From contig OY781964.1 of the NCBI GenBank assembly GCA_963677485.1, positions 2,624,001 through 2,688,000 of the forward strand: 64,000 bases of DNA, read 5' to 3'. Made by a program: the position numbers and the translations under genes. The stretch is from Armatimonadota bacterium (GTDB lineage Bacteria; Armatimonadota; HRBIN16). Shown here piece by piece: positions 40,940-49,948 of the stretch. Each line of letters opens with the position of its first letter. Position 1 is the stretch's first letter. Under the pieces are notes generated by a model, which saw only the letters and a program-made list of their open reading frames with translations, searched no databases and was not told the origin of the DNA.

Positions 40940-42427
40940 CTATTTCCCTATCAGCTTCAGTATCTCATCCGCCGCCTTTTCCGCTTCGGCATACTGCCCC
41001 GCCTTCATGTAATTCTCCAGCTTCTGGGCTAACGGCTGAATCTCTTTCGGCCCATACTTTTGAGCATATACCGGCATCTCTTTTTGAATCCTGTGCATCT
41101 TCGTGATGAAGGCGGTGGTGGGCATACCGCCCAGCGCCTGATCCTCTTGAAGCTTCTCGCCCCGCAGGAACTCCCGGTAGGCCTCAAGCGCCTTCGGGTT
41201 TTCCGCCACTTTACGGAACGGGTTATTGGCATCCCCCACGGCCCATCCAAACACATTCACCAGCTCCGCGCCGTGGTTGTATAGGTTCCCCAGATAGGCC
41301 TCCATCGACATGCTTTTGCCGCCCTTGTCCGCCTGACCGGGATCCATCGCCGTGCCTTCAGAGGAGGCCCAGGCGATATTGCCATGCTTCTTCACCTCAT
41401 CATAGATGGCGTCCAGGTGCCCGGGCATGGGATAGGTGCTGAAACCCGGTTTATGGTGAGGTCCGAATGCCACTCGTGGCGGTGTGAAGTGGATAGACGC
41501 TAGATAGCTTCGACCCTGTTTGGCCATGTCTGGGTTATGAGCAATTTCCGGCGAGAAGGCGATGTGCGAGTATATCTTCGCATCGGGCACACCGGCGTCT
41601 GTAAGCGACTTGGCCCAAAAGTCCACAAACTCTTGAACTATGGCAACCCGCTCTTCATCAGTATCTTTCGGAAGGTTGGTGGCACTGAACCCCTTCCTCT
41701 TCAGAGCGTTGTATCCCAGCGATTCATCGCTGACGAAGTCGCGCCCAATCTGCGTCTCCCATCCGTTGATCACACCGATGAAGAGGTGCTCCTTCTTCGC
41801 GGCCTTCAATGCGGCCAGACCCCTCTTCACTTCCGCTCCAACTAAAGCCGACCGCTTTTTCACTTCCTGCAGCACCGCGGGGCTGTTCAGGCATAGCTGC
41901 GGCATGATTTTGGTGGGGGTAGACGACCAGTCAAGCCGCCGACCGGTATTGGGTGTTCCCTTCCAGTCAGTCCATTCCACATTCTCGGGTTTATTGAGGT
42001 TGGACACCCGCTCCCAGAACATCGAGTCGTCCACATGGAATCCCACGGCGATGTTGTTCTTCAGGGCGATGTCGAACGAGCTGCGCATCAACTGTTGAAT
42101 CTGCGCATCGGTGTGGTTGAATGACAGTGGACCAGTGATGAACCCCAATTTGGTGGTTTTACTGCCCACTGTGCCGATTTGCCGTATGATGGCGTCTACT
42201 GTAGTAGCTACCCCGTTCAAAAGCGGGGGGAAGTTGACCCGCCCGGTCTTGTCGTCGGCCTGGGTGAAAATCTGAAACGCAAGGTACTTGGTCGGCATGG
42301 TCTCTGCTCCCTTTGCTGATGGAAGTTCCTGCGTGTTTAACGGTGGGTTGCTATGTCTTGGAGACAAGGCCCATCCAATGAACAGGAATATCAAAATCGA
42401 GTAGATGACGGCAGATTTGCGATTCAT
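40940..42427 (-). CDS. Hypothetical exported protein, possibly TIM-barrel glycosidase-like
   Basis: Long ORF, N-terminal hydrophobic segment from ATG 42427, NGWE and WASSEG Glu-containing motifs. Confidence 0.6.
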   Translation of the reverse strand: MNRKSAVIYSILIFLFIGWALSPRHSNPPLNTQELPSAKGAETMPTKYLAFQIFTQADDKTGRVNFPPLLNGVATTVDAIIRQIGTVGSKTTKLGFITGPLSFNHTDAQIQQLMRSSFDIALKNNIAVGFHVDDSMFWERVSNLNKPENVEWTDWKGTPNTGRRLDWSSTPTKIMPQLCLNSPAVLQEVKKRSALVGAEVKRGLAALKAAKKEHLFIGVINGWETQIGRDFVSDESLGYNALKRKGFSATNLPKDTDEERVAIVQEFVDFWAKSLTDAGVPDAKIYSHIAFSPEIAHNPDMAKQGRSYLASIHFTPPRVAFGPHHKPGFSTYPMPGHLDAIYDEVKKHGNIAWASSEGTAMDPGQADKGGKSMSMEAYLGNLYNHGAELVNVFGWAVGDANNPFRKVAENPKALEAYREFLRGEKLQEDQALGGMPTTAFITKMHRIQKEMPVYAQKYGPKEIQPLAQKLENYMKAGQYAEAEKAADEILKLIGK

Positions 42428-42559
42428 AGCTTTATCAATCTCCCGCGGAAATGCAGCCTTTCCGTGAATGCTGTTTGTGAGGCTGTAGCTATACAATACA
42501 CTATTGCGACGACAAAAGTGATCCGGTGCAAATCAGCCGGGCAACCCAAGGAGACTGAC

Positions 42560-43000
42560 ATGAACTGGTATCTTCAAGCATTCAAAAAGTATGCCTATTT
42601 CGCAGGCCGCTCACGCCGGTCCGAGTTTTGGTTTTACGCCCTCTACAACATTCTGGTGCTGATTGGCTTCAAGCTGGCCTATGCGATCGCAGTGGGAGTG
42701 GGCTCATCTGCCATGAAGCATAAATCACCAGAGGGAATCCCGCCAATGCAGGGCGTCGGCGCCATCGCGCTGGCTGTGGTGATCTGTCTGGCGTTTGCAC
42801 TCTATGTGGTGGGCGTGATCATCCCGTCGCTGGCGGTGATCATCCGTCGGCTGCATGATTCTGGACGCCGTTCGTGGTGGCTGCTGCTGGCCGTGGTTCC
42901 GGTGTTCGGGTTGATCGTGCTGCTGATATTCATGCTGCTGGGAAGCAAGCCCGTGGAGAACCGCTACGGCCCCAGCCCGAAGGTATTGCCAACAGCGTAG
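42560..43000 (+). CDS. DUF805 family inner membrane protein
   Basis: MNWYLQAFKKYAYFAGRSRRSEFW...RRLHDSG...NRYGPSP; AAGGAG RBS. Confidence 0.92.
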   Translation: MNWYLQAFKKYAYFAGRSRRSEFWFYALYNILVLIGFKLAYAIAVGVGSSAMKHKSPEGIPPMQGVGAIALAVVICLAFALYVVGVIIPSLAVIIRRLHDSGRRSWWLLLAVVPVFGLIVLLIFMLLGSKPVENRYGPSPKVLPTA

Positions 43001-43144
43001 CAACACTGCGGTTCTGGGTGAATCACTGCTTCACGAGATAGTATGGGGTAAGGTGCTTGCATGTATGGTAGGCACCTTACCTTTTCTGTTACACTGGCAA
43101 GTGGATTAGCGTTGACGGTTACACAACCACACTAAGGGGCAGGC

Positions 43145-43597
43145 ATGAACTGGTATATCAAGGTGTTGAAAAAGTACGCTGACTTCAATGGCCGGGCAAG
43201 CCGTGTTGAGTTCTGGTATTTCACGCTCATCAACCTGGTGGTCTTTGCATTTAACGAAATAATTGCTCTGACCGCTGCACAGAGCTTTTTCACCTCGATT
43301 TTCAATGTGATGACGATGGAAGGTAACAAAAGCCTTGATTTCTCAGGTTTCGGTCTCGCCGTCGGAGCATTAGTGGGTCAAGCGATCTTGGGCATATACC
43401 TTCTGGCAATCCTAATTCCTTGGCTGGCTGTCACTATTCGTCGTCTTCAGGATACAGGACGTAGCGGCTTATACTGCCTGTTTCTGATGCTCCCAATTGT
43501 TGGTATTCTAGCGTTGATTGTGTTCCTTTGCGAAGACGGCCAGCCGATGGAAAACCAGTATGGCCCCAATCCGAAGGATTTGTTTGTGAGCGTGTAA
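43145..43597 (+). CDS. DUF805 family inner membrane protein
   Basis: MNWYIKVLKKYADFNGRASRVEFW...RRLQDTGRSG...NQYGPNP. Confidence 0.92.
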   Translation: MNWYIKVLKKYADFNGRASRVEFWYFTLINLVVFAFNEIIALTAAQSFFTSIFNVMTMEGNKSLDFSGFGLAVGALVGQAILGIYLLAILIPWLAVTIRRLQDTGRSGLYCLFLMLPIVGILALIVFLCEDGQPMENQYGPNPKDLFVSV

Positions 43598-43685
43598 GCG
43601 GGACGCTGCTAGCCGCACATAGGACAGATCGGGCCGAACCGCAGCCCAGTAGGGGCAGGCACAGGGGCCTGCCCCTTGTATGCTT

Positions 43686-43900
43686 ATAGATGGAGGTCCT
43701 CAGACCTTAACCCAAAACTTGAGGACCATCCTCACACCGGGACGCTGGGGTGAAAGAGAAGGGGTAGATGCCGTCGCGCCCCTTGTAGCTTTGACTACGC
43801 GACGTAGAATGGCACCCTTCTCTGCAATGACCTAACACGAACAGTATCATGGGCTAAAGCCCGCATTTACAAGGATGTCAAGGTTGATTGCTTCACCTGT
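43686..43900 (+). ncRNA. Predicted IS110 bridge RNA
   Basis: 5' stem-loop, then two internal-loop hairpins carrying CGCGCCCCT/GACGTAG (target guides) and ACAGTATC/TACAAG (donor guides); exact ends uncertain. Confidence 0.85.
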
Positions 43901-44443
43901 GTCCCTAACTAGGAGCATACCGGACTATGCAAATCAATGGCAACTCGTACAGCTACTACGCTGGGATCGACATATCTAAAGACACTTTCGACGTGTCGGT
44001 CGTTGATCAAGACGGCACCCATCTGATCCACAAGCAGTTTGTGAACAACCAGAAAGGCTTCAAAGAGCTGGTGTCACTCACCAGGAAGCAAGGCTGGATG
44101 CCTGTGTTATTCGCAATGGAAGGCACTGGCGGATGTGAGCAAAAGCTGCTTGACTACCTGTATAAGCATAAGCAGGCAGTCTCACGGCAAGAACCCTGTC
44201 GAATACACTATCATCGCCTCTCACAAGGATCTCGGCAAAAGACAGACTATGTAGACAGCCTGATCATTGCTGACTACGCACTAAAGAACCGCCTGCGGCT
44301 CTATGTCGCTAATCGGGTTACACTATACCAGCCCATTCGGCATGTGTGAGCCACCCATGTTCGGCATGACTATACCACTCTAGCCGTGTTTCGATGCCCC
44401 TGACCGCCTAAATGATAGACACAGTTTTATCAGGAGGGCATAC

Positions 44444-46003
44444 ATGGAAAGGCTAAGAATGCAGATCATAGAAGAGATCATATTCCGACTGCGGCGTGGG
44501 CAGTCCCAACGAGCGATTTCTCGTGACACGGGCTGCGCTCGTAACACCGTCAGCCAATACGCACAGTGGGCTTCTCGACTTGGATACCTGGCTCCAGATT
44601 CAGATATGCCGAGTATGGAGGCATTTCGTGACACCTTACCGCAGCGCAAACGACGCAGTAATGTGTCTAGTGCTGAACCATACCGCGAAATCATCGAGAC
44701 CTATCTCCAGACTCACATAGAGGCAGTGACCATCCACAACAACCTCAAACGACTATACGGGTTTACCGGTAGCTACTCTTCGGTTATTCGCTTCATTAAC
44801 GGACTGACCCCCAAAGAGCAGTTGGCCATTATACGTCTAGAGACAGACCCAGGAAAACAGGCCCAGGTTGACTTCGGATTTGTGGGGCAAATGAAGGACC
44901 CCGCAACAGGCAAGATGCGTTCAACGTATGCCTTCTTGATGACGCTATCACACTCTCGACATCAATATGTGGAGTTTGTATTCAATCAAAGGATACCCAC
45001 ATGGGTGAACTGCCATATCAACGCCTTTGAATTCTTCGGAGGCGTTCCAGAGGAACTTGTGATAGACAATCTAAAGTCAGCGGTTCTCAAAGCAGATATA
45101 TACGACCCTGTCATCTCGGAGCCGTATCGGCAACTGGCCTTGCACTACGACTTCCTCATTCATCCGTGTAGAGTGAGAACCCCGGAGCATAAAGGAAAAG
45201 TGGAAAACGGGGTTCATTACGTGCAGCGAAACTTCATTGCAGGCCGGGAGTTCATGGATATCGACGAAGCGAACCTGCTTGTGAAGACCTGGATCACCCA
45301 AGAGGCAGGTCTGCGTAACCATGGAACCACACATAAACAGCCATTGGCGCAGTTCAATCAGGTAGAGAAGAGCACGCTTAAGTCATTACCAGACACGGAA
45401 TTTGATCTCATTGAAGTTCGTAGTGCGAAAGTCCATCGGGACTGTCATGTTACAGTGTATGGTTCTTACTATTCCGTGCCCTACAGCTACATAGGCAGCC
45501 AAATGGACGTGCATCTGCACGAACGAGTGGTGCAGATATATGATAACGACCATAAACTAGTTGGAACACATCAAAGAGCGACACAACAAGGGCAGCGCAT
45601 TACCCGCATGACTGATTACCCAACACATAAAGTGGCCTATATGGTTCTTTCAATCGAGAATTGCCTGGAATTAGGGCATGACATCGGCCCCAGTTGTGTT
45701 ACGGTGCTTAATGCTTTGCTGGCTGACAGGCCTGTAGACCGAAGACAATCCGTGAAGAGGATCGTCCGGCTAGTTCAAACGTACAGCAGTAGTCGCCTGG
45801 AAGCGGCCTGCGCACGCTCTCTCTATTACCAAGATGGTAGTTACCAACGCATTGCTAAGATACTGAGGGCCGGTACAGATCACGAGCCAATGGGAATAAC
45901 ATCTTCTCTTCCCCCTAAAAAAGACTACCTCTTCGCTCGTAGTGCCGACGAATTCATTTTGGTCAGTAATGCTGACACCAATATGGAGGTAGAAGCGTGT
46001 TAA
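44444..46003 (+). CDS. istA: IS21 transposase IstA
   Basis: N-terminal HTH; QAQVDFG, FGGVP...DNLKS, KGKVENGV and YSVPY motifs. Confidence 0.95.
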   Translation: MERLRMQIIEEIIFRLRRGQSQRAISRDTGCARNTVSQYAQWASRLGYLAPDSDMPSMEAFRDTLPQRKRRSNVSSAEPYREIIETYLQTHIEAVTIHNNLKRLYGFTGSYSSVIRFINGLTPKEQLAIIRLETDPGKQAQVDFGFVGQMKDPATGKMRSTYAFLMTLSHSRHQYVEFVFNQRIPTWVNCHINAFEFFGGVPEELVIDNLKSAVLKADIYDPVISEPYRQLALHYDFLIHPCRVRTPEHKGKVENGVHYVQRNFIAGREFMDIDEANLLVKTWITQEAGLRNHGTTHKQPLAQFNQVEKSTLKSLPDTEFDLIEVRSAKVHRDCHVTVYGSYYSVPYSYIGSQMDVHLHERVVQIYDNDHKLVGTHQRATQQGQRITRMTDYPTHKVAYMVLSIENCLELGHDIGPSCVTVLNALLADRPVDRRQSVKRIVRLVQTYSSSRLEAACARSLYYQDGSYQRIAKILRAGTDHEPMGITSSLPPKKDYLFARSADEFILVSNADTNMEVEAC

Positions 46004-46764
46004 CTCACACACTGCTACCCAAGCTCAGGCAACTCAGATGGTCTGGCATGGTTGATAGCCTCGAAGAGAGAGCGGAGCTAGCCCGTGAGCAAAAGCTCTC
46101 ACCAACGGAGTTCCTTGCGTTATTAGTAGATGATGAGCTTGAGCGACGCAGCCAAACTAAACAGGTAAAGATGGAGAAGGCGGCCTGTTTCGAGAACACG
46201 AAACTGCTGTCCCACTTCGACTTCAACGCTGTACCTACCCTTGATCGTTCGCTGGTAAGGGAGATGGCGACCTGCCAGTTAATCGCTCAACATGCCAACT
46301 GGCTGGTGTGTGGTCCCACTGGTGTGGGCAAGACACATCTAGCCACCGCCATAGGTTATGAGGCCATTAAGCGAAGCTACAGTGTTTATAACAGTTCTGT
46401 CCACAAGTTGCAACAGGAGATGTTTGCGGCCAGGGCAGACGATGCTTATACGCGGTTGATTAAGAAATTGGTCAACGTTGACCTCCTGATACTCGACGAC
46501 TTTGGTCTTCGCCCCATCACAATTCAGGGAGCGGAAGACCTCTACGAGATCATCCACCAGAGATACGAGAAGGGCAGTATTGTATTGACATCTAATCGGG
46601 CTCCCTCCGAATGGCCGGAGATGTTTGGCGACTCTCTTCTCGCTTCAGCTGCTATGGACAGATTGACTCACCATGCCCGGGTGACTGTTGTCACCGGTGA
46701 GAGCTATCGCCAAAGGCAGCGCAGAGGGGAGGTAAGCAAGCCGGATAATGCATCCGTAGAGTGA
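45997..46764 (+). CDS. istB: IS21 helper ATPase IstB
   Basis: GPTGVGKTHLA Walker A, LLILDDFG Walker B, TSNR, DRLTHHA and GESYR motifs. Confidence 0.96.
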   Translation: MLTHTLLPKLRQLRWSGMVDSLEERAELAREQKLSPTEFLALLVDDELERRSQTKQVKMEKAACFENTKLLSHFDFNAVPTLDRSLVREMATCQLIAQHANWLVCGPTGVGKTHLATAIGYEAIKRSYSVYNSSVHKLQQEMFAARADDAYTRLIKKLVNVDLLILDDFGLRPITIQGAEDLYEIIHQRYEKGSIVLTSNRAPSEWPEMFGDSLLASAAMDRLTHHARVTVVTGESYRQRQRRGEVSKPDNASVE

Positions 46765-48340
46765 GATACCGACGCATCCAACACTTACATTGGGCAATGA
46801 ACACGAACTAGTCAAGTGGTATACATATGCCGAACATGGGTGGTAGTAATAAGGTGACTATTGACAGCTCTACATTCCTAAAGGCGAAAGCTATCGGGCG
46901 CTGCAGGAGATCGGTCGCACACGGCGCATGCTGGTCAGACACCGGAACTCCCTGCAGCAGAGGCACTCTCACGCGCAGAACCTGCATGCCAAAGCGGTTC
47001 TTCAACGCAGCATAGATCACTGCACAGAGGATATCGATCTTTTGAACTCCGCGGCTGCTGAGATTATCGCCAGCAATGACAGGCTAGCGGAAGATTATCG
47101 CCTCCTGAACAGTATTCCGGGTGTAGGTGATATCACATCCAACTACTTTCTAGGGCTCATCGGTGATATATCTTGCTTTGCGACGTCTGCGAAGATAATC
47201 CGATTTGTGGGTATGAACCCATGCCCGCACCAGTCAGGAACCAGCATCGATTCCGAAAGCAGCATATCCAAAATGGGCGATCCCTACATGCGCTCCTTGT
47301 TATACACCAGTGCCATGGCTGTATTACATATGGTGGATCACAATTCGAAAGCACTCCATCCCAGCATGTATCGGTTCGTGGCCAAAATGCGGGAGAGATT
47401 CGGCCCGAGTTCTAGCAGGAAGGTCGTATGCGCGGTGATGCGCAAGCTGCTGATCTTGATGTGGGCTGTGTTGACCAGGCGTAAGGTTTACGATCCGTGC
47501 TACGGACTAGAGCCGCAGGATGCTCCGGCCAACCAGACACCGCAATCCGACGACACTGGCCTTGTCCAGTCTCGTGCCGAAGCGGCCTCAGATTTTGCCG
47601 GCGAAGGCAATGATGCTGGGCAGGACAGTGGCGTTCCAGGATTGGGATGTCTGGATGGATAGCCACCGTGTGGTTCATCCTTGGCCCCAAGTGGTTGAGC
47701 AGCATTCCAGAGCCGGCGAGTCAGCGGTAGAAAGATATGATCACCACTAGCTAGCTGCTCTTGATCTAGCCGCTAAAATTAACATCATTAGAACGTTATC
47801 TTTAAAGCCTCAAAGATGCGGGGTGGGCGTTCATCACTACGGATGACGGGCAACCCTTTGCATAACGGTGCATCTTCGCGTGGGACCGGCTTGTGCTATG
47901 AGCTTGGGTATACCTAAGGTCTATTTGCCACATTGCATAATATAAACGTTGTCCGCAGAACGTTATGGGCATAAATCTGGTATTTCGGACAAATACCAGA
48001 TTTCACCCTCGGAGGCCTTGACAAATAACACAGTATCTACGTCATGCGCCATGTCCTATCGCCCCCCCCAAATCTGCGCCATCTGCGTAATCTGTGGATT
48101 GAATCCCCCTCCAACAAGAATTGCATGGGGACCTGCCTGAGAAGCAATGGTGAAACTCCCGCCACAGAACGTAGCTCCGCTATAATAGAACTGACTAAAA
48201 GCCCAAACAAGCGCAAACAGCAAGCATAGCAACAACTTAGCCTTGAATAAGTCGCGGTGCGATGTGCCGCTGTATTATCAACTGCACCGCGACGGTAATG
48301 ACCAATGACCTTTACAGGAGCTGCGTAGCAACAGGAGATT

Positions 48341-49948
48341 ATGAAACACACATTACCAATTGTAGGAGCACTACTCATGGCGACTGCCGCGATGGCCCAA
48401 ACGCCTTTCAAAGTGGGCATCGAGCTGCCCACGATGCTGCCCGTTGACCCCGCGGTGGAGCTGATGCTGAAGGATGTGGGGGTGAACTACCTCAATTTCT
48501 TCGTGTACAACAACGGCGGTCCGACCGAGCAGGATGCCATGGCGGTGTATGATGCACAGGCGGCACTGGCGAAACGGCTGGGTGCGGAGTATCAACTGGC
48601 GTGCCATCATGTGGACATCCCCGAAGCGGTGGTGCGAAAGGCGGCTCAAGATCCGCTCTGTAATGGCGTGCTGATTGATGAGCTGGAGCACATCCGGCTG
48701 CTGTGGCGGCTGAACCCTCCGCCCGCAAAGCTTCTGGCTGATGTGAACAGCTTCAAAGACCTGTATGACGCTCACGACAAGGCGGCTGCCGGCTGGAAGC
48801 AGCTCGGTGACAAATACCGCAGTTGGGACATCAAGAACCTGAACAGCACGCATGTGTGGCCAGTGCTGCTATCGGTGGCGGCTGAGGGTGGATGGAACCC
48901 CACACCCAAGATATGCAAGGAATACTACTCGCCAGTGTCGCTGGCCATCGGTATGGGTGCGGCGCTGCAGTATGACAAGCAACTGATGGTGGATTGTGAC
49001 CTGTGGCTGTGGGACATGCTGCCGGGGCACTCCGCTGAGGAGTATCGCAGCAATCTGCTGCTGGCCTACTGGAGCGGGGCGGACGGCATCTACACCGAAG
49101 GCTCTGGATATAACCTGCTGCCGGCTGGCAGGCAGGGGTTGCCTCACAGCCTGATGCAGAAGATATCGGATACCGAGTATGCCTTGAGCCCTCACTGTGA
49201 GGTGCTGAGGTGGTTCATCAAGGACTATATCCCCACGCATCCGCGTCTGTGGAGCTTCCGCGATATCAAGCCGGATGTGGCGATCATCCGCTTTGACGAT
49301 AGCTGTTACGGTCAGCGCTACACCGGTATGCCTGACACGCTGTATGGCTCCGATAAGCTGCACAGCGATGCTGACACCGAGGCGGTTTTCCAGATGTGGA
49401 ATATGCTGACCGGAAGTCATTCCGGGCGTGACGGTATCGTGAGCGCTCAGCGTGTCACCCAGAATATGTATAACTACGAGCACAGCCCGCAGAATACCCG
49501 GCGCGACAGCTACCTGACCCGTCCGGTGATGGCGAACGCTCACAACTTCTTCGTGCCTCTGAACAATGTAGTGGTGTTCGACGACACGGTAGGTGCAGAG
49601 AAGCTGCGCGACATCCCCTGTCTGGTGTTATCAGGCAAGCGTATCAGCCCAAAAACCTGGCGGGCCGTTCAGGCGCGGGTGCGTCAGGGAGCGGTCTGTG
49701 TGATCTGGGCACCTCTGGCCGTCAAGCTGGGACTGAAGCCAACTGGTGACGTCACTGAGCTGCCGATGGGTAAGGGCAAGTTAGTCATCACCACCGACTT
49801 CGGCTTTCTGCCGGTCTTCAATGCCATGTGGCCTTATCTGGGCCATGGTGACCAAATTCGCTACCGCTTCACGCAAGGCGAAGTGGTGCTGAAGCAGGTC
49901 GACGCCAACAAGGTAGATGTGACCACCACGGTGTATCCTAAACCGTAG
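48341..49948 (+). CDS. Secreted hypothetical protein (paralog of 56987-58594)
   Basis: Signal peptide, 535 aa, DELEH and DCDLW motifs; CAGGAG RBS. Confidence 0.75.
   Translation: MKHTLPIVGALLMATAAMAQTPFKVGIELPTMLPVDPAVELMLKDVGVNYLNFFVYNNGGPTEQDAMAVYDAQAALAKRLGAEYQLACHHVDIPEAVVRKAAQDPLCNGVLIDELEHIRLLWRLNPPPAKLLADVNSFKDLYDAHDKAAAGWKQLGDKYRSWDIKNLNSTHVWPVLLSVAAEGGWNPTPKICKEYYSPVSLAIGMGAALQYDKQLMVDCDLWLWDMLPGHSAEEYRSNLLLAYWSGADGIYTEGSGYNLLPAGRQGLPHSLMQKISDTEYALSPHCEVLRWFIKDYIPTHPRLWSFRDIKPDVAIIRFDDSCYGQRYTGMPDTLYGSDKLHSDADTEAVFQMWNMLTGSHSGRDGIVSAQRVTQNMYNYEHSPQNTRRDSYLTRPVMANAHNFFVPLNNVVVFDDTVGAEKLRDIPCLVLSGKRISPKTWRAVQARVRQGAVCVIWAPLAVKLGLKPTGDVTELPMGKGKLVITTDFGFLPVFNAMWPYLGHGDQIRYRFTQGEVVLKQVDANKVDVTTTVYPKP

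Follow-up and report, generated by a model that had tools for sequence, protein, structure and literature searches.

The locus considered here raises the question of whether an IS110-family element in an Armatimonadota genome carries, in its non-coding left end, a bridge RNA whose guide segments spell out both the site in which the element sits and the element's own ends. The window, i.e., the whole stretch of DNA that was analysed, is 64,000 nucleotides long, and positions without a contig name refer to it. A first-pass annotation had proposed an IS621-type bridge RNA with the donor of IS621 and a differently programmed target loop. We are highly confident that the left end does encode a genuine IS621-type bridge RNA. 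The anatomy of the RNA, the complementarity of its guides to target and donor, their covariation with insertion sites in a twin copy and in sibling elements, and a conserved, covarying structure carry this conclusion, and they bear out the proposal together with a one-to-one correspondence to the loops of IS621 as described in the text of PMC11208158.

Element boundaries, recombinase, and twin copy

The element (element A) occupies positions 43677-48038, with a CT core at each flank. Direct reading gives CCTGCCC (43668-74), CT (43675-76), and TGTAT (43677-81) at the left junction and ACAGTAT (48030-36), CT (48037-38), and ACGTC (48039-43) at the right one, confirming the target CCTGCCC-CT-ACGTC and the donor ACAGTAT-CT-TGTAT that the first-pass annotation had reconstructed. 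The ends were also fixed independently by a second copy in the same genome, the twin, to which identity starts and stops exactly at both junctions. In the window copy and the twin alike, the target duplication is the dinucleotide CT and nothing longer; a CT core also stands at both junctions in 12/12 copies of element B and 9/9 copies of element C, two siblings described below. The parts of the element and its flanks are as follows.

43668..43674, + strand: left target half (LT), CCTGCCC, forming the 3' arm of a hairpin of 10 bp (43651-60/43667-76) downstream of a DUF805 gene
43675..43676, + strand: CT core, left copy
43677..43926, + strand: non-coding left end (LE), 250 nt, starting with the right donor half TGTAT (43677-81)
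43927..44303, + strand: recombinase gene, N-terminal piece, DEDD RuvC-like domain
44298-303 and 46867-72: GCTCTA, 6-bp target-site duplication of the IS21-family element
44304..46866, + strand: IS21-family element, 2563 bp, inside the recombinase gene, with istA (44444-46003) and istB (45997-46764)
46873..47662, + strand: recombinase gene, C-terminal piece, Transposase_20 domain with the catalytic serine and a tail of ~60 aa
47663..48036, + strand: non-coding right end (RE), with AACGTTAT repeats and the left donor half ACAGTAT (48030-36)
48037..48038, + strand: CT core, right copy
48039..48043, + strand: right target half (RT), ACGTC

Among the neighbouring ORFs 40940-42496, 42353-43000, 43145-43597, and 48341-49948, the DUF805 match of 43145-43597 is the sole Pfam match, and none of the four matches NCBIfam at 1e-5. 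The IS21 breaks the recombinase gene at codon 126; the element length minus the IS21 and one duplicated hexamer is 1793 bp. Nine full-length copies of the same IS21 are present in the genome at 99–100% identity, and hence it looks currently active. The right end, about 376 nt long, contains AACGTTAT-like repeats at ~47793, 47946, and 47959, in blocks conserved across elements A–E, and a perfect 13-bp hairpin (47974-48004) directly upstream of a -35 hexamer.

The two gene pieces match PF01548 (1.8e-21) and PF02371 (2.4e-21), and the complete protein, taken from the twin (P0001), matches NF033542, 'IS110 family RNA-guided transposase', with 189.6 bits against a cut-off of 140. The protein has the architecture of IS110 recombinases, with a DEDD RuvC-like domain at the N terminus and the catalytic serine in a Tnp domain at the C terminus. 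P0001 aligns with the IS621 transposase (PDB 8wt6; E 1.1e-24) and the ISCro4 transposase (E 8.7e-23). Its residues D15, E65, D107, D110, and S247 fall on D11, E60, D102, D105, and S241, described as catalytic in IS621, and all five are invariant in elements A, B, and C. The C-terminal tail (residues ~330-387, window 47490-47659) is conserved among these three elements, with invariant positions including Y331, D332, P333, N345, Q346, G383, C384, D386, and G387, and reaches past the stretch aligned to the solved IS621 chain. Relatives with 27–35% identity cover just 68–88% of the P0001 query.

The twin lies 1.37 Mb away and retains an open frame of 387 aa. Rebuilding the recombinase by deleting the IS21, as had been suggested, is therefore unnecessary. 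Twin and window copy differ by four substitutions and one 3-bp indel, none of them within the two guide hairpins; the copies agree fully in both ends, in the -35 hexamer, and in the four guides. The window copy cannot make its own recombinase, since the IS21 splits the gene, and is thus non-autonomous. It is otherwise intact, with the RNA gene and both ends preserved, and since the twin encodes the same RNA and recombinase, it could be moved in trans.

Anatomy and chance expectation of the left-end guides

The left end resolves into a 5' stem-loop and, after it, two hairpins that abut inside a common closing helix.

43689..43733, + strand: 5' stem-loop of the bridge RNA, as folded
43748..43754, + strand: closing helix, 5' strand, pairing with 43892-98 and enclosing the target and donor hairpins together
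43755..43823, + strand: target-binding hairpin, with outer stems 43755-63/43815-23 and 43769-72/43811-14 and inner stem 43784-88/43795-99
43775..43783, + strand: left target guide CGCGCCCCT (RNA: CGCGCCCCU), matching the twin target at 9/9 and the window target at 7/9 positions
43801..43807, + strand: right target guide GACGUAG, i.e., GUAG with a 3-nt extension, reverse complement of CT-ACGTC (48037-43), 7/7
43808..43809, + strand: putative handshake guide position of the target loop (AA), placed by position on the IS621 description
43824..43891, + strand: donor-binding hairpin, with outer stem 43824-33/43881-91, middle stem 43837-39/43876-78, and inner stem 43850-54/43859-63
43841..43848, + strand: left donor guide ACAGTATC (RNA: ACAGUAUC), equal to the right-end terminus 48030-37
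43865..43873, + strand: right donor guide AUUUACAAG, pairing with CT-TGTAT under the scheme described for IS621, with two U flipped out
43892..43898, + strand: closing helix, 3' strand

The first-pass annotation had located four guides in the loops of two hairpins. All four are found there, and every coordinate it gave proved correct on direct reading. The outer stem of the target hairpin is formed by AGAGAAGGG (43755-63) and CCCTTCTCT (43815-23), its inner stem had been read as GTAG (43785-88) and CTAC (43795-98), and the letters of the donor inner stem are GGGCT (43851-55) and AGCCC (43858-62). The segment TACAAG, previously listed as a guide, corresponds to 43868-73 and is part of the longer right donor guide AUUUACAAG. 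By analogy with IS621, the first A of the target-loop AA (43808-09) could pair with donor T7.

To gauge chance, the 250-nt left end was shuffled 20000 times at the mononucleotide level. A match as good as the 7/9 to the left target of the window arose in 5671/20000 shuffles (28%), the 7-mer reverse complement of CTACGTC was present in 338/20000, ACAGTATC in 87/20000, and TACAAG in 1261/20000. The four matches occurred jointly in 0/20000, and the 9/9 match to the left target of the twin was equalled in 15/20000. The 7/9 match thus carries no weight alone, and the set of four is not due to chance. The match that had been reported to the left target of the window does exist where it was placed; however, taken by itself it is at chance level, and the true cognate of the guide is CGCGCCC-CT, the left half of the twin site.

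The two sites of element A can be compared directly. The twin sits at CGCGCCC-CT-ACGGT, where the left target fits CGCGCCCCT at 9/9 and the right at 5/7 positions; in the window copy, the left target has two mismatches (7/9), and the right one fits the extended right guide at 7/7. The twin and the window copy therefore show opposite half-match patterns, which with two sites only is an anecdote. The left target of the window even fits the guide of sibling D better than its own (8/9 vs. 7/9), and the window copy looks like a mismatched insertion. The genome still carries six exact CGCGCCCCTAC sites, one of which is the opposite arm of the palindrome beside the twin.

The whole 250 nt of the left end fold at -93.3 kcal/mol (z -4.64), and 0/200 shuffles fold equally well. 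For the two hairpins taken by themselves (43740-43900), the fold does not exceed chance expectation (z -1.62; 15/200 shuffles equally good). A scan of 43000-48500 against Rfam, with E values up to 10, returned only two spurious lncRNA matches; Rfam 15 may hold no bridge RNA model.

Immediately downstream of the RNA region lie a Shine-Dalgarno sequence (43911-15) and the ATG at 43927. This location, as well as the ability of 43678-84 to pair with 43914-20 beside the Shine-Dalgarno sequence, would suit a structure that is merely a 5' leader controlling recombinase translation, with the guide matches arising by coincidence. We find this barely credible, given the joint chance of the four matches and of the 9/9 twin match, as well as the guide-target covariation across 25 insertion sites described in the next section. 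A leader role may coexist with the guide role and does not replace it. The preferred reading of the left end thus remains that of a bridge RNA.

Sibling elements and covariation of guides, sites, and structure

Four relatives of element A allow the guides to be compared with the sites actually occupied. Element B is present in the same genome at 12 places (e.g., L026:1243-3054) as copies of 1812 bp encoding a 430-aa recombinase 45% identical to that of A. DNA similarity between A and B is confined to 43747-43891, i.e., to the two hairpins. Two B copies are 1796 bp long and internally divergent from the others. Element C has nine copies in the congener G001, with a recombinase 84% identical to that of A, and elements D (87%) and E (86%; protein identity to A in both cases) were found on two metagenome contigs. 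A search of 61 genomes, i.e., that of A and 60 relatives, gave matches in two only, that of A and the one congener, and a scan of genome contigs with P0001 returned only the congener copies. The left target guides of the five elements and the left halves of their sites are listed below.

Element A: CGCGCCCCU; sites CGCGCCC-CT (twin) and CCTGCCC-CT (window)
Element B: ACCGCCCCU; sites mostly ACCGCCC-CT
Element C: GUCAUCCCU; sites mostly GTCATCC-CT
Element D: CGUGCCCCU; site CATGCCC-CT
Element E: GUGGCCCCU; site GTTGCCC-CT

Over the 25 sites of A–E, the cognate left target guide fits at 9/9 positions in 13 cases, at 8/9 in 10, and at 7/9 and 6/9 in one case each; sites of a given element are not independent, being members of a single repeat family. 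When all five guides are compared, the cognate one fits strictly best at 22/25 sites, ties at two, and is outdone at one, the window copy. On the right side, CT-AC comes next at 23/25 sites and CT-ACG at 16/25, in agreement with the guide (C)GUAG. Variation among A, C, D, and E (recombinases 84–87% identical to that of A) is concentrated in the guide: 5/7 non-core left-guide columns vary, as compared with 31/245 other left-end columns (Fisher p 8e-4, which is only indicative since the sequences are kin).

Donor-side segments covary as well. Elements A, C, D, and E have the right donor TGTAT and the right donor guide AU(U/A)UACAAG, and B has the right donor AGTAC with the guide GUUCGCUAG, pairing with CT-AGTAC. 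Under the pairing scheme described in the text of the IS621 papers, and only with two bases flipped out, these changes are compensatory. Element B has the left donor half and the right target guide in common with A and differs from it in the left target guide and the right donor half.

Two further features of the sibling guides were observed. In B and C, the match of the target loop to the left target runs over 11 nt rather than nine (L026:1335-1346 and L038:1344-1354), covering GAACCGCCCCT at 6/12 B sites and GGGTCATCCCT at 5/9 C sites; these longer matches may be a coincidence, as the sites of each element form one repeat family. The left donor guide of C (L038, donor loop ACAGTAACA) mismatches the element's own right end ACAGTAT-CT at position 7, a donor position reported by Durrant et al. 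to be unusually tolerant of mismatches.

Palindromic repeats are known as preferred targets of IS110 elements. At 19/25 sites of A–E, as compared with 53/5000 random CT sites, the left target forms the 3' arm of a GC-rich, perfectly paired hairpin of 8–10 bp, which fits this preference as well as the target stem-loop described for ISPpu10.

The structure is conserved along with the guides. The alignment fold of A–E contains the 5' stem-loop, the target hairpin, and the donor hairpin, with the guides in internal loops. That the guides would lie in internal loops rather than in stems had been expected from the outset; the target guides do so wholly, and three bases of each donor guide are paired, as both the minimum-free-energy and the alignment folds place a weak 3-bp contact (GUA/UAC) between the left and right donor guides. 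In the curated structure of the five sequences, 94.9% of cells pair, as compared with 35–43% in slid controls, and seven pairs show compensatory change (0/500 shuffles).

A covariance model, R1, was built from the five RNAs of A–E. In the genome of A, R1 found only the 14 copies of A and B. It was further applied to 77 metagenome loci encoding recombinases with 24–34% identity, and full-length + strand matches were obtained in 34/77, ending 0–120 nt upstream of the gene or protein match; this is a lower bound, as some of the other 43 contigs have no upstream sequence. Across the 32 distinct sequences among these matches, 89.6% of cells pair (64.2% shuffled, 41–48% slid) and compensatory change is seen in 40/43 pairs, figures that lean towards the model because the alignment was fitted to R1. 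The closing helix is predicted by unconstrained folding in 28/37 sequences and in 72/185 controls with swapped 3' ends, and since the controls also show it, its support is moderate only.

A different account of the same repeats is that they act as DNA, serving as subterminal binding sites of the recombinase, with incidental hairpins. Many transposons carry copies of their own termini as protein-binding sites, and both ACAGTATC and the reverse complement of CTTGTA do copy the element's own ends. However, the left target guide matches host DNA outside the element and shifts with the host repeat family in A–E, a behaviour that sites binding the element's own termini cannot account for. In addition, compensatory changes preserve the pairing of the stems, a sign of selection at the RNA level, and the guides are on the strand and side described in the text of the IS621 papers. 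We thus consider the DNA-site account very unlikely, nearly as improbable as the leader, and retain the bridge RNA.

Putative expression, mobility, and comparison with known systems

Two hexamers at opposite ends of the element suggest how the RNA might be transcribed.

43679..43684, + strand: candidate -10 hexamer, TATGCT, assigned by counted spacing
48018-23, + strand: -35 hexamer, TTGACA, in the right end

The -35 hexamer is followed by 15 nt to the right terminus, and TATGCT starts 2 nt into the left end; hence a circle would set the two 17 nt apart. Both the hexamer and its distance of exactly 15 nt are kept in all five elements A–E despite differing spacer sequence. The integrated left end has no + strand sigma-70-like promoter upstream of the RNA. 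The left-end bases 43678-84, which precede the putative start of transcription, can also pair with AGCATAC (43914-20) beside the Shine-Dalgarno sequence, a pairing that is intact in A, C, D, and E and broken at 2/8 pairs in B. Judging from these positions, transcripts reading in from outside might have the ribosome site masked, and those from a junction promoter would not.

By analogy with IS621, a cycle can be proposed in which transcription, protein binding, and recombination are all carried over from that system. Excision of the circle would bring together TTGACA of the right end and TATGCT of the left end; the joined promoter would drive an RNA of ~200 nt starting near 43690 and consisting of the 5' stem-loop, the target-binding hairpin, and the donor-binding hairpin. 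The donor-loop guides ACAGUAUC and AUUUACAAG would then address the joined element ends ACAGTAT-CT-TGTAT, and the RNA-bound DEDD/serine recombinase would exchange strands at the CT cores.

Whether the window copy still takes part in such a cycle can be questioned. It could be a dead relic, immobile and with a bridge RNA that is never expressed, yet too young to have decayed: its recombinase gene is split at codon 126, the integrated state has no + strand promoter of the sigma-70 type in front of the RNA, and the four substitutions and one 3-bp indel that separate it from the twin fit a recent insertion as well as selection. We regard this as an appreciable possibility, albeit an unlikely one. 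Both ends, the -35 hexamer, and the four guides are identical to those of the twin, which supplies the same recombinase and RNA in trans, and trans action is reported for the relative ISPpu10 in bioRxiv 10.64898/2026.03.19.712850. Besides, weak expression from integrated loci has been described for IS621 itself (PMC13626964).

Sequencing-run data, consisting of assembled contigs only, add little. Three assemblies contain the element as broken contigs, and no circle junction was seen in them. A joint skipping 1804 bases was rejected as an empty site, since its shorter side has only 20 letters and 14 foreign letters lie in between. The sole metatranscriptome contig matched (209 nt) falls inside the recombinase gene and is uninformative on the bridge RNA.

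Element A provides a further clean example, from nature, of the mechanism established earlier for IS621. Within its genome and that of the congener, elements that are nearly identical differ in little more than the seven programmable bases of the left target guide, and each version of the guide matches the palindromic repeat family that the element has colonised. The two A copies, one with a perfect left half and the other with a perfect right half and a mismatched left, bear on off-target and "half-match" insertions, which are described for IS621 in bioRxiv 10.64898/2026.08.31.748434. Since thousands of bridge RNAs have already been predicted computationally, according to the text of PMC11208160, the RNA of element A raises no new question, and the orthologue tables of that study might already include it.

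Somewhat more doubtful than the relic reading, and offered tentatively, is the possibility that the clade of A–E and some of the 34 distant relatives use a variant layout: abutting hairpins clamped into a three-way junction by a covarying closing helix, with a conserved recombinase tail of ~60 aa, a right end that is long and contains AACGTTAT repeats, left guides that may reach 11 nt (B and C), and right target guides of 5–7 nt. As clade-specific traits, the closing helix, the ~60-aa tail, and the 376-nt right end with AACGTTAT repeats are suggestive only. Were these features to tune specificity or expression, the clade would represent a naturally more specific bridge system and provide a ready-made series of retargeted guides, with recombinases 84–87% identical to that of A. 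No publication tying an IS110 bridge RNA to a three-way junction was found in a search of paper texts, and the helix may be published in figures or supplements.

The closest known system is IS621 of Escherichia coli, with its bridge recombinase and 177-nt bridge RNA. As given in the text of PMC11208160 and PMC11208158, pairing is to the bottom strand for its left guides and to the top strand for its right guides. C-G-U precedes and U follows the 9-nt left target guide; GUAG serves as the right target guide, with three more positions open to extension; the 8-nt left donor guide is followed by A-U; and in the right donor guide two U are flipped, with a G:T pair formed at donor position 12. In the orthologues of IS621, the first loop is variable and the second one conserved, according to the same text. 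Intact element A has no blastn (distant) match among 20,395 E. coli records, and hence the comparison rests on nucleotides and positions named in the text of these papers.

Against this description, element A agrees in carrying the RNA within its left end, upstream of the gene for a DEDD/serine recombinase, with a 5' stem-loop followed by target- and donor-binding hairpins with internal loops. In both, the left guides have the sequence of the top strand, the right guides have its reverse complement, and the core is CT; the -35 of IS621 in the right end and its -10 in the left have putative counterparts in A. The right target guide GUAG and the target CT-AC are shared with IS621, whose wild-type target is ATCAGGCCTAC. 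At the level of single positions, A has CGU at 43772-74, U at 43784, GAC-GUAG at 43801-07, ACAGUAUC-AU at 43841-50, and AUUUACAAG, with two flipped U, at 43865-73. The donor 14-mer ACAGTATCTTGTAT is identical: its identity with IS621, proposed in the first-pass annotation, is verified by the IS621 donor oligo in PMC13396178, and the donor positions 6-14 that PMC11208158 names are consistent with it.

Element A also differs from IS621. The recombinase of A is distant (E 1.1e-24; ~30% identity, estimated from the printed alignment) and has 387 aa with a conserved C-terminal tail of ~60 aa, whereas the IS621 chain in PDB has 328 residues. Element A has CGCGCCCCU as left target guide and a naturally extended right target guide that pairs over 5 to 7 nt, and an A at the position equivalent to G161 would form a canonical pair with donor T12. 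Relative to the IS621 description, the inner stem-loops of A are shorter, and its hairpins abut inside a 7-bp closing helix that is unmentioned for IS621 in the text available from PMC11208160 and PMC11208158. The non-coding right end of A is 376 nt long.

Other members of the family offer looser parallels. For the IS110 elements ISPpu10 and ISPpu9 of Pseudomonas putida, insertion at repetitive extragenic palindromes or at stem-loops is described (bioRxiv 10.64898/2026.03.19.712850; PMC12288879), and the insertion of A–E directly 3' of a GC-rich hairpin at 19/25 sites resembles this behaviour. The elements and the hosts are different. In IS1111 elements, the guide RNA lies downstream of the gene, whereas that of element A lies upstream, as in the IS110 group. 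The IS1111 group with its seekRNA (PMC13604230) shares with element A an RNA-guided DEDD/serine recombinase and membership of the wider IS110 family.
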